DNA of 64,000 bases from Gemmatimonadales bacterium (GTDB taxonomy: Bacteria; Gemmatimonadota; Gemmatimonadetes; Gemmatimonadales; GWC2-71-9), in assembly GCA_035251445.1 (NCBI GenBank), contig DATFEG010000040.1:15261-79260 (forward strand), in the 5' to 3' direction. The notes under the pieces were generated by a model. It searched no databases. It was not told the DNA's origin and saw only the letters and a program-made list of their open reading frames with translations. This document shows, piece after piece, positions 2,088-42,602 of this stretch. Positions within the stretch are counted from its first letter, which is position 1. Each line of letters starts with the position of its first letter. The translations under genes were made by a program, and so were the position numbers.

Positions 2088-2178
2088 GCTATCCGGTGTC
2101 CGCTATCCGGTATCCGCTATCCGGTACCAGGTATCCGTCACGACACACCGGGTACCGGATAGCGGATAGCGGATACCG
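2088..2178. repeat. Inverted arrays of tandem heptanucleotides (GCTATCC/GGTATCC ... GGATAGC) forming a long hairpin
   Basis: 7-bp periodicity read directly. 2111-2128 pairs perfectly (18 bp) with 2151-2168. The stem extends to 28 bp with 2 mismatches. Confidence 0.85.
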
Positions 2179-2190
2179 ATTGGAGCTGCT

Positions 2191-3537
2191 ATGGCCCGAG
2201 TAGACGTTCTCATGCCCCAGATGGGCGAGTCCATTGCCGAGGGCACCCTCAGCAAGTGGCTCAAGAAGGTCGGCGATCCGGTAAAGCGGGACGAGCCGCT
2301 GTTCGAGATCTCGACGGACAAGGTCGACGCGGAGATCCCCGCGCCCGCCGCTGGCACGCTTGCGGAGATCAAGGTCCAGGAGGGGCAGACGGTGCCGGTG
2401 CAGACGCTCGTCGCGGTGCTCGAAACGGATAAGGCGGCGGCCGGACGGCCAGACGGCCCGACGGCCGGCACCGCACCAGCCGCTGCGGCTCCAGCCCCGG
2501 CGGTCCCGAAAGCTGAGCCACCCAAGGCAGCCACACCTCCGCCGCCACCTCCGGCCGACCGGCCGTCCGGCCGTGCGGCCGTCCCCGCTGGCGACGGCGG
2601 CGTGATGACCGCCGAGCAACGCCTGCGCACCAAATCCACGCCGCTCGTCCGGAAGATCGCCGCGGAACACAGCGTCGACATCTCGCGGATCCCTGGCAGC
2701 GGCTACGCGGGTCGCGTAACCAAACAGGACATCCTCGGCTATATCGAGCGCGCGCCGGCAGCCGCCCCAAGCCCCAGGACCCAGGCTCCAGGCCCTGCGG
2801 GGGCCATCGAACATCCATCCGTTGAACCGTGGCCGGGGGACAGGGTCGAACCGTGGTCCAAAATCCGGAAGATCACCGCCGACCACATGGTGATGTCGAG
2901 GCGCGTATCGGCCCACGTCGCGAGTTTCTTCGAGGTCGACTTCACGCGGATCGCGCAGCTGCGCGCGAAGGCCAAACAGACCTACGCCGAGCGCGGCGTC
3001 AACCTGACGTTCCTCGCCTTCATCGTGAAGGCCTGCGCCGAGAATCTGCGCAAGCATCCGATCGTAAACGCCGCGGTCTCGGGCGACAGCACGATTTATC
3101 GCGGTGAGATCAACATCGGGATTGCCGTGGCGCTGGATTGGGGGTTGATCGTCCCGGTGATCAAGCATGCCGACGAGCTCGCGCTCATGGGCATCGCGCG
3201 CGCCATCAACGACCTGGGCGAGCGCGCGCGTACCAAGAAGCTCTCGCCCGACGACATCCAGCGCGGGACCTTCACCATCACGAACCCGGGCGGCTTTGGG
3301 CCCTTCGCGGGGATCCCCATCATCAATCAGCCACAGGTCGCGATTCTTGGGGTCGGAGCGATCGAAAAGCGCCCCAAGGTGCTTACCGCCACCGATGGCA
3401 CCGAGTCGATCGCCATTCGCACGATGGGCGTGTTGACCATGTCGTACGATCATCGCGTCGTCGACGGCGCCGATGCCGACCGGTTCCTCGCCGATGTCAA
3501 GAACCTGCTGCAGGAGTTTCCCGAGGGAGCGGTATGA
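2191..3537 (+). CDS. Dihydrolipoamide acyltransferase E2 component
   Basis: Lipoyl domain (EISTDKVDAEIPAP), Pro/Ala linker, E3-binding region, and a catalytic domain with SYDHRVVDGA. Confidence 0.92.
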   Translation: MARVDVLMPQMGESIAEGTLSKWLKKVGDPVKRDEPLFEISTDKVDAEIPAPAAGTLAEIKVQEGQTVPVQTLVAVLETDKAAAGRPDGPTAGTAPAAAAPAPAVPKAEPPKAATPPPPPPADRPSGRAAVPAGDGGVMTAEQRLRTKSTPLVRKIAAEHSVDISRIPGSGYAGRVTKQDILGYIERAPAAAPSPRTQAPGPAGAIEHPSVEPWPGDRVEPWSKIRKITADHMVMSRRVSAHVASFFEVDFTRIAQLRAKAKQTYAERGVNLTFLAFIVKACAENLRKHPIVNAAVSGDSTIYRGEINIGIAVALDWGLIVPVIKHADELALMGIARAINDLGERARTKKLSPDDIQRGTFTITNPGGFGPFAGIPIINQPQVAILGVGAIEKRPKVLTATDGTESIAIRTMGVLTMSYDHRVVDGADADRFLADVKNLLQEFPEGAV

Positions 3538-3851
3538 GAATGCCGAAAGTCTTGACCGCGGCGCGCGTGCGGGTGCCTGCCCAGCACGAGACGGAGTACG
3601 TGAACACGTTACGCGAGCTGAGCCAGTTTGCTGAAGCGCGCGGCCAGAAGATCTGGTTGTTTCGCAATGCCAAGGATCCGCGCTTGTTCATCGAGTTCTC
3701 CGAGAGTCCGACCGAGATGTCGCATCGCGCCCAGGCGTCGCGGCTGCCCGAAGAGATCAAACTGGAGAAGCGATTGCAGTCGCTCGCGACGTACGCGCCG
3801 GATGCGTGGGAGCTCTGGAGCGAGGTGAGTGTATGGCCCGTCGCCCCCTGA
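3534..3851 (+). CDS. Hypothetical small protein (105 aa)
   Basis: ATG 3534 overlaps the E2 stop (ATGA). High third-position GC. No family recognised. Confidence 0.5.
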   Translation: MRMPKVLTAARVRVPAQHETEYVNTLRELSQFAEARGQKIWLFRNAKDPRLFIEFSESPTEMSHRAQASRLPEEIKLEKRLQSLATYAPDAWELWSEVSVWPVAP

Positions 3852-42200: not shown

Positions 42201-42508
42201 AGGTCGATCCAGGCCCCCCTCCTCCGGGCCTGCAGCGCGCGCCCAACCGGGGCGGGGGCGGGGGCGGGGGCGTGACAGGACCGGCCGGTGGTTTGCCGGG
42301 GACGACGCGACGTCAGGCGCCCATGGTGGCTTCAAAAGCGGCCGCCGACGGTCTGGTCACCAGCGGTGAGCCTCCCCCACGCGCCGTGCAGCGTGGTGGG
42401 ACGGCGGAGCCGGCCTTTGCGGCCAACCCCTACGCCGGCGTTGGGCGCAACGACCCGTGCCCGTGTGGCAGCGGCAAGAAGTTCAAGAAATGCCACGGGG
42501 CAGCCTAA
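39209..42508 (+). CDS. secA: Preprotein translocase ATPase SecA
   Basis: [33 protein letters not shown], and a C-terminal zinc motif [14 protein letters not shown]. Confidence 0.97.
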
Positions 42509-42510
42509 AT

Positions 42511-42602
42511 ACGGAACGTGGAGTGTGGAATGCGGAATTGACGGGCAAGCTTCGAAACCCGCCCTGAAATTGCGCATTCCGAACTCCGCATTTCGCATTC
42601 TT
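42511..42602. repeat. Inverted arrays of tandem heptanucleotides (GTGGAGT GTGGAAT GCGGAAT ... CATTCCG AACTCCG CATTTCG) forming a hairpin downstream of secA
   Basis: 7-bp periodicity read directly. 42518-42539 pairs with 42569-42590 (22 positions: 18 Watson-Crick, 2 G-U, 2 mismatches). Confidence 0.8.

Follow-up and report, generated by a model that had tools for sequence, protein, structure and literature searches.

Since 1990-2007, long simple repeats of the heptamer type have been known from some bacterial genomes as a statistical peculiarity. Repetitive extragenic palindromic (REP) elements stabilize the 3' ends of messenger RNA (mRNA). Heptamers are the commonest class of long simple sequence repeats (LSSRs) in many genomes, including those of Burkholderia and Xanthomonas, and polymerase slippage has been proposed as the source of LSSRs (Mrazek 2007, as reported in PMC4679880 and PMC4692102). 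Xanthomonas, with a coding GC content of about 65%, has 70-75 convergent inverted heptamer pairs, mostly less than 50 bp from stop codons, and its GGGAATC repeats (Rehm et al. 2015) consist of about 4 units, lie between co-oriented genes and are depleted from coding sequence (PMC4692102). Cyanobacterial STRRs (short tandemly repeated repetitive sequences) have a 7-bp unit and fold into hairpins in intercistronic spacers such as that of hupS and hupL, where transcript stabilization or translational coupling has been proposed (PMC2670836). A full-text literature search found no description of such repeats for Gemmatimonadota. The subject of this study is a 64,000-nucleotide stretch on a 90-kb contig of a Gemmatimonadales bacterium from a rhizosphere metagenome (GenBank assembly GCA_035251445.1, contig DATFEG010000040.1, positions 15,261 to 79,260), referred to here in its whole length as the window. 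It carries tandem arrays of short units, some of them paired into hairpins, and these arrays are local members of a population of short arrays restricted to a subclade of Gemmatimonadales.

An initial annotation of the window, made from the sequence alone, had compared its heptamer arrays with cyanobacterial STRRs and had considered them undescribed in high-GC diderm lineages. The comparison is apt. Both consist of 7-bp tandem units that form intercistronic hairpins, and the hairpin between the genes for the E1-beta and E2 subunits of a 2-oxoacid dehydrogenase is a direct architectural analogue. The differences are that the phylum is Gemmatimonadota (the close relatives are all metagenome-assembled genomes, MAGs, of Gemmatimonadales) and not heterocystous cyanobacteria, that GC content differs, and that STRR descriptions list few fixed heptamer families, whereas many units with periods of 7-10 occur here. 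The claim of novelty did not hold, as heptamer repeats have been published for Burkholderia and Xanthomonas (PMC4679880, PMC4692102).

The heptamers of Xanthomonas and Nostoc (PMC4692102) share further traits with the window arrays: about four units per array, a GC-rich diderm host, dispersal over housekeeping loci, depletion in coding sequence, proximity to stop codons, convergent pairs forming stem-loops, and variation in length and sequence at the same intergenic site. The intergenic bias, the position near stop codons and the inverted pairing of that class are all found among the window arrays. In Xanthomonas and Nostoc, however, one G-rich unit capable of forming a quadruplex dominates, whereas here there are many unrelated units, most of them without G-tracts. 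Unit length in Gemmatimonadales is 7, 8 or 10 depending on the lineage, and the in-frame share is larger (about a third). The TAACTGA repeats of marine Beggiatoaceae and cyanobacteria (PMC4679880) resemble the window arrays in having 2-6 heptamer copies in mostly intergenic positions near start codons, with a patchy distribution, but they consist of a single AT-rich unit containing a stop codon and are almost never inverted (1 indirect repeat in 170 sets). The LSSRs with units of 5-11 nt surveyed by Mrazek (2007) are likewise in excess in large, GC-rich genomes of non-pathogens; as far as that survey is reported in PMC4679880 and PMC4692102, it differs in being without Gemmatimonadota, hairpin pairing, lineage-specific period preference and recurrent occupation of junctions. 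The kind of repeat is thus already known, and what is new here is the diversity of units, the lineage-specific lengths of 7, 8 and 10, the high in-frame share and the phylum.

Arrays were surveyed by period with Tandem Repeats Finder (TRF) at a score of at least 40, and ten block-wise dinucleotide shuffles served as controls; a custom mismatch-tolerant repeat scanner was too strict (2 arrays found) and the TRF counts were used instead. The comparison set comprised 80 loci of up to 21 kb around a trxB-like gene from species-representative genomes, about 62 of them from Gemmatimonadales (62-89% protein identity) and about 17 from outgroups of equal GC content (Dormibacterota, Chloroflexota and others). 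A second set contained 80 metagenome loci around secA. The counts cover the window and about 950 kb of relatives' loci. In the window, 5 period-7 and 2 period-8 arrays were detected, against 0.0 of each in the shuffles; among perfect repeats of at least 2.5 copies there are 4 arrays of period 7 and none of periods 8-12. All five heptamer loci listed in the initial annotation were recovered by TRF and direct reading. Three arrays had been overlooked, all in linkers of E2: the two of the inverted GGCCNGAC pair and a GCCCCAG array.

Close Gemmatimonadales (271 kb) have 8 arrays of period 7 (0.4 in shuffles), 9 of period 8 (0.1) and 23 of period 10 (1.2). The farther members of the order (617 kb) have 19 (0.0), 17 (0.2) and 2 (2.5), respectively, and the outgroups (301 kb) have none of any of these periods. 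Gemmatimonadales totals over 952 kb are 32, 28 and 25 for periods 7, 8 and 10, against about 0-4 expected. The outgroups do carry the usual in-frame periods of 9, 12 and 15, so the enriched class consists of non-triplet units and not of heptamers alone. Taken as LSSRs with units of 5-11 nt, arrays exceed chance both in the window and in the relatives' loci. Their density per 100 kb is 9.9 in the subclade of the window, 2.1 in the sister subclade and 0 in the outgroups. A typical array is about 30 nt long, has 3-5 copies of a 7-, 8- or 10-nt unit, and is either single or part of an inverted pair, the pairs forming hairpin stems of 25-35 bp. An apparently constant array length of about 30 nt whatever the period was also considered and was dropped because it is confounded by the TRF score threshold.

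The initial annotation had argued from a constant 7-bp period to a common generating or recognizing mechanism. The period is not constant, since the window itself contains an 8-bp pair and periods 8 and 10 are enriched across the clade. The same spacer can hold period 7, 8 or 10 in different relatives, and the period clusters by genome (permutation p=0.0004, each hairpin pair counted once): period 10 is favored in L008, L011 and L012, period 8 in L051, and period 7 in the window, L038 and L062. That period 7 should be no commoner than period 8 had been named beforehand as an outcome that would count against the period-7 argument; the two are about equally frequent, and by this rule the argument fails. 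The variation of unit length by lineage also argues against a fixed 7-nt polymerase footprint. A clade-specific common process behind the arrays is nevertheless well supported, by the enrichment, the restriction to a subclade, the bias to gene junctions, the inverted pairs and the recurrence of units. The idea of a common process stands in this form; the period as its unifying feature does not.

The positional bias that had been suggested as a check was observed. Only 36% of period-7, -8 and -10 arrays lie inside coding sequence, against 64% of random placements (flank-based coding classifier), and those outside it sit at gene boundaries, concentrated at stop/start junctions. In-frame arrays are found only in tolerant segments, which are either interdomain linkers defined by Pfam or variable loops defined by alignment. 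The hairpins at 2088 and 42511 begin 0-3 nt past stop codons. The arrays of the window, with at least six unrelated units among them, are collected in Table 1.

Table 1. Tandem arrays and array-based hairpins of the window (position 1 is its first nucleotide).
Feature	Position	Strand	Description
Heptamer hairpin, E1-beta-E2 spacer	2088-2178	+	Left arm 2088-2137, GCTATCC/GGTATCC; right arm 2147-2178, GGATAGC/GGATACC
Inverted 8-bp array pair GGCCNGAC	2438-2584	+	GGCCNGAC at 2438-2468, complement at 2550-2584; TRF
Period-7 array GCCCCAG x4.6	2764-2795	+	In frame, E2 linker 2; TRF
(CGACGCA) x4.4	7041-7071	+	In frame, PF27252 (AF_1314_C) protein; TRF
(CGACGCA) x4.7	7572-7604	+	Spacer from PF27252 stop codon (7569) to GTG start of DUF309 gene (7604); TRF
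Perfect (GGGAAAC) x4.7	13666-13698	+	In frame, ThiF-rhodanese linker, peptide ERETGNGKRET; TRF
Degenerate heptamer hairpin (GYGGAAT and complement)	42511-42602	+	After secA, upstream of radC
Possible weak member, G-run array (GGGGGGGAAC-like, period 8-10)	28904-28934	+	Directly past murB stop codon
Possible weak member, (GCCGGCCCCC) x2.1	58566-58586	+	TPR-gene stop codon to tatC start; TRF score 35

The two inverted-array loci of the initial annotation do form hairpins. The first extends from the E1-beta stop codon (2085-2087) to the Shine-Dalgarno sequence and start of E2 (2191), both genes being assigned by Pfam. Its left arm alternates between two units (period 7/14, TRF score 72), TRF finds the inverted partner at 2156-2175 (CGGATAG x2.9, 100%), and an inverted-repeat search of the window gives arms of 32 nt with 91% complementarity. 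The predicted RNA fold is -60.8 kcal/mol (z -6.1). The second hairpin, 3 nt past the secA stop codon (42508), is more degenerate. Its right arm (42569-42600, ATTCCGC x4.6) has just 72% matches, and its left arm (42511-42545) is too degenerate for TRF and was recovered as a 46-nt, 72%-complementary inverted repeat; the fold is -42.2 kcal/mol (z -3.6). A third hairpin is formed by the GGCCNGAC pair, whose arrays have TRF scores of 44 and 56 at period 8. Its inverted repeat measures 26 nt with 88% complementarity, and the predicted fold is -88 kcal/mol (z -5.0). These three hairpins are the three longest inverted repeats of the entire window, and single arrays that lack an inverted partner are unstructured as RNA (z > 0).

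The GGCCNGAC pair is in frame within the E2 acyltransferase gene; it occupies linker 1, which separates the lipoyl from the E3-binding domain, and is not present in linker 1 of the closest relatives. The GCCCCAG array of linker 2, which separates the E3-binding from the catalytic domain, has an orthologous array in L003. Both linkers are Ala/Pro-rich. The two arrays that the initial annotation had placed in frame inside coding sequences are indeed so placed. One corresponds to residues 66-76 of the PF27252 protein (coding sequence 6844-7569), in a loop SDARRTTHDARD that varies in length and sequence and is flanked by the conserved motifs DW..FFD and IVPSPHMPHLMF. The other corresponds to residues 267-278 of the ThiF-rhodanese protein, with Pfam domains at 13-248 and 282-372 on either side, and with its four GGG tracts it is the sole listed array that has clear G-quadruplex potential. 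Family membership is uncertain for the array after murB (a gene assigned by Pfam), with TRF scores of 34-35 near chance level, and likewise for the array before tatC. As a separate observation on linker 1, seven relatives (L005, L007, L008, L011, L012, L014 and L017) carry there an in-frame palindromic element of about 40-50 nt, beginning GCAGCAGCCCAGCGGGCRCCCGCTGC and encoding AAAQRAPAA, that is followed by period-8 or period-10 arrays; the window is without it.

One site compared among relatives is the E1-beta-E2 spacer. In most of them, including the nearest (L076 and L003), it is 12-13 nt long, with a Shine-Dalgarno sequence that shares bases with the stop codon (TGAGGAG...ATG). The window and L002, L005, L013, L015, L038, L061 and L064 instead have inserts of 70-117 nt, placed exactly between stop codon and Shine-Dalgarno sequence. 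Seven of these eight inserts consist of tandem arrays in an inverted pair, whereas in L038 just one CCCGCTC array is evident. Its units include GCTATCC, GACGGTCA (period 8), GGTATCG, GTCAGAC, CCCGCTC, GCTATCR and GCTATTG. In a tree of E1-beta and E2, six insert-bearing tips (the window, L002, L013, L038, L061 and L064) are scattered among tips with short spacers, which implies at least 5-6 gains at this spacer, or many more losses; L005 and L015 stand outside this tree. Among the closest four genomes, two have empty sites and two have unrelated hairpins. No target-site duplication or conserved terminal motif is visible when filled and empty sites are compared. The same tree places L032 (CAXMUQ010000099.1), labeled as an Acidimicrobiia MAG, inside Gemmatimonadales beside L038, and this contig is probably mis-binned.

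Turnover was also seen at the other sites. The spacer before the DUF309 gene has a single period-7 array in the window and in L003 (there perfect, x5), is 5 nt long with no array in L076, and holds inverted period-8 or period-10 hairpins in L002, L006, L008, L009, L011 and L012. In the PF27252 loop, the window and L076 have period-7 arrays and L003, L005 and L002 have period-8 arrays, and in farther relatives the loop is ordinary sequence with no array. The ThiF-rhodanese linker is 48 nt long in L076, L003 and L013, with degenerate GGGAAGC/GGGGAAC units; the window has its perfect array at equal length, and most other relatives have 42 nt and no array.

Units are shared between sites of the same genome more often than expected. 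Of 185 pairs of non-adjacent sites within one locus, 12 have a canonical unit in common, where permutation gives 3.5 (p=0.0005), although diversity is high overall (34 distinct canonical period-7 units among 51 arrays). For example, ACCGTCCTCT is found at three sites in L008, and in L005 the unit of the junction hairpin is found again in E2 linker 2, about 600 nt away. In the window, the 28-mers at 7043-7070 and 7577-7604 are identical, a CGACGTA variant included, at sites 534 bp apart.

Nor are the units of the window single occurrences: every unit type recurs at many other loci of the source metagenome. The flanks of the arrays have a summed contig word depth of 8-10 there, and the arrays exceed their flanks 5- to 100-fold, with many alternative flanking sequences: word depth is about 1044 (48 contigs) for (CGACGCA)n, about 612 (32 contigs) for (GGGAAAC)n and about 50 for the arms of the hairpin at 2088, which one contig has around a 5-nt loop. 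The GGCCNGAC arms of the E2 pair occur with at least seven other loop sequences. High depth and many flanks together indicate that the window units are members of dispersed families, with a caveat that some of the unit-bearing contigs may come from other community members.

Orthologous and crisper hairpins were detected directly past the secA stop codon in six metagenome loci. The unit differs by lineage, being GCGGAAT in L093, L094 and L095, GCGGAAC in L097 and L099, and GCGGATT in L100, and within each lineage one unit variant is used throughout both arms. The consensus structure (RNAalifold) has 31 pairs, 10 of which show compensatory double changes. In the SecA tree the window is the only bearer in its 12-row clade and the other bearers belong to more distant clades. 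Four loci without the hairpin (L082, L083, L087 and L103) keep one CGCGTT(C/G) unit directly past the stop codon. Recurrence at one site together with concerted unit change makes the secA hairpin the best hint of a selected stem-loop, a candidate suggested by sequence comparison.

Three other elements were noticed near this hairpin. A palindromic motif, (T)TCGGTACCG(G), at 42600-42618 upstream of radC was compared downstream of secA in L082-L109 and is kept in nearly all relatives, with or without a heptamer hairpin. It possibly serves radC-relA/spoT as an operator or promoter element. In L085, L090, L101, L102 and L109 a different perfect hairpin, GTAGGGGCGCAGCATGCTGCGCCCCTAC, follows secA and looks like a separate dispersed palindromic family. 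Within secA itself, a perfect (GGGGCG) x4 hexamer lies in frame at 42247-42272, in the C-terminal tail of the protein just before the SEC-C zinc motif.

The arrays are not assembly artefacts, because they are unchanged in a second, independent assembly from the same study (ERZ27257131). Over 13.4 kb the two assemblies show 14 single-base differences (99.9% identity), all of them outside the arrays, and they encode an identical array-bearing PF27252 protein. The copy-number polymorphism between strains that had been proposed as a check was not found between these two. In the source metagenome, the ends of Logan contigs coincide exactly with the arrays (a 564-nt contig, for example, spans 7041-7604); the arrays behave as repeat nodes of the assembly graph and probably fragment MAGs of this clade.

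We consider it rather probable that the arrays arise and spread through slippage, template switching and ectopic copying, and that sites where the sequence is tolerated, or useful as an RNA stem-loop, keep them. Replication slippage would create and homogenize the arrays, and intrastrand template switching would build the second, inverted arm and keep it matched to the first. Short-range or ectopic copying (gene conversion) would carry the preferred units of a genome to new sites, the identical 28-mers being an example. Purifying selection would leave survivors only where extra sequence is tolerated. With predicted folding energies of -42 to -61 kcal/mol, transcribed hairpins just past stop codons would presumably stop 3' exonucleases or guide processing. 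By analogy with described systems, such hairpins probably work as RNA stem-loops through which the upstream cistron has its 3' end protected or processed and its stability tuned, while most array copies may be neutral.

Several points weigh against this explanation. Slippage, switching and copying are all inferred. The perfect 33-nt array at 13666 sits in a linker exactly as long as the one that holds the degenerate arrays of relatives; non-triplet slippage would shift the frame, and since linker length is kept, simple slippage is a poor fit and conversion or replacement is indicated. That complete hairpins appeared independently at least 5-6 times at a single 12-nt spacer suggests insertion of a ready-made cassette rather than growth in place. 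Concerted evolution alone could yield the covariation of the secA hairpin without selection on structure. As to transcripts, the metatranscriptome runs hold only relatives diverged by 5-10%, and nothing in them spans the E1-beta-E2 hairpin. A consensus scan found no intrinsic terminator at either hairpin, the loops being 14-40 nt long and the stems having no T-run or U-tract after them, and the arrays match no Rfam 15 family, the sole window hit at the gathering threshold being a tRNA-Leu.

Cassette insertion by a dedicated enzyme is the main rival to slippage and copying, and the repeated gains at one 12-nt spacer make it a serious possibility. In its mobile-element form, a non-autonomous element of the REP/REPIN (REP doublet forming a hairpin) or MITE (miniature inverted-repeat transposable element) type would be put at junctions by a REP-associated tyrosine transposase (RAYT), or by another transposase or recombinase encoded elsewhere. 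REP elements, bacterial interspersed mosaic elements (BIMEs) and REPINs of Enterobacteria and Pseudomonas are likewise extragenic hairpins just past stop codons in operons, often in inverted doublets, and their presence varies between close relatives. Presence and absence at exactly one junction among close relatives, hairpin tips scattered on the tree, two empty sites and two unrelated hairpins in the closest four genomes, identical arms with different loops elsewhere in the source metagenome, and preferred units particular to each genome would all fit such an element. However, REP and REPIN sequences are one conserved family of 20-40 nt per genome, mobilized by RAYT, with arms that are not internally tandem, whereas the window arrays have tandem arms and units that vary from locus to locus, and only the minority of site pairs given above share a unit. 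The filled and empty E1-beta-E2 sites lack the terminal motif or target-site duplication of an inserted element, single arrays without an inverted partner are common, many arrays are in frame inside genes with length preserved, and no transposase turned up among those window genes covered by general domain scans. We regard a mobile element as unlikely.

An active, lineage-specific copying process, enzymatic or acting at the replication fork, by which units of 7-10 nt particular to a genome would be written out as arrays and ready-made hairpin cassettes, is also doubtful in our view. It would place cassettes into gene junctions and tolerant coding loops, overwriting resident sequence at unchanged length, with a measuring length of 7, 8 or 10 nt that differs by lineage. 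Such a process would jointly explain the repeated hairpin gains at the 12-nt spacer and the length-matched perfect in-frame array. It would also explain the 28-mer shared over 534 bp, the genome-specific units and periods and the steep fall in density in the sister subclade.

The reading of the arrays as independent ordinary microsatellites, in which unrelated slippage and base composition suffice and the apparent family is a small-number coincidence, is largely refuted, and we hold it improbable. The few arrays of the window (5-7) and the presence of periods 9, 12 and 15, as in any genome, are in agreement with it. Against it stand 85 arrays of periods 7, 8 and 10 in Gemmatimonadales and 0 in the equal-GC outgroups, shuffles that yield almost none, and two arrays with an identical 28-mer. 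Nor would independent slippage lead one to expect arrays that pair in inverted orientation, favor junctions and cluster by genome in unit and period.

A role as G-quadruplex regulatory repeats like GGGAATC of Xanthomonas and GGGGAYT of Nostoc, in which four-stranded DNA or RNA would be the acting structure, is very improbable. The GGGAAAC array departs by one base from the Xanthomonas unit and its copy number is the typical 4-5 (PMC4692102), and G-run arrays follow murB. The units CGACGCA, GCTATCC/GGTATCC, GCGGAAT, GCCCCAG and GGCCNGAC, by contrast, are without GGG runs and form no canonical quadruplex, and what relatives retain is the hairpin and not the G-tracts. As a reading for the whole set it was rejected, since it fits just the one array at 13666-13698. 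Phase variation, in which gain or loss of units would switch genes or alter regulatory spacing, is scarcely credible: units that are not multiples of three do shift the frame on gain or loss, and heptamer switches are reported for Haemophilus (PMC2651432), but the genes are housekeeping ones (2-oxoacid dehydrogenase E1/E2, ThiF-rhodanese, secA), the in-frame arrays stay in frame in all relatives, and the unchanged copy number in two 99.9% identical strains also speaks against switching, although two strains are a weak test.

The window has some further features outside the array family. The segment 14021-14120, bounded by the stop codon of the ThiF-rhodanese gene (14012) on one side and by a tRNA-Leu(CAG) on the minus strand (14137-14220) on the other, has direct repeats of TTCGACGCC and TTTGACG about 12-14 nt apart with T-runs interleaved (TRF periods 12, 14 and 26). 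These repeats are of another kind than the heptamer arrays. A single open reading frame of 1169 amino acids (58597-62106) contains a TatC domain (11-222) and an LptD_2-like domain (469-671); either the two are fused in an unusual way or a gene boundary has been missed. At about 4940-5386 (8840-9286 of L001), two adjacent small genes of 47 and 94 amino acids both match peroxiredoxin families (AhpC-TSA/Redoxin) and may be a split or frameshifted peroxiredoxin gene.

The Gemmatimonadales arrays are an unusually informative case of such repeats, with dozens of relatives in which a given junction can be compared. They are tolerated even inside essential genes. As the sister subclade nearly lacks arrays, the responsible factor could be sought by comparison. 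In annotation, the arrays account for assembly breaks, operon spacers of 12-117 nt and low-complexity linker peptides in these MAGs. Should the hairpins determine how stable the upstream cistron is, they would amount to a general level of operon tuning in a phylum that is abundant in soil.

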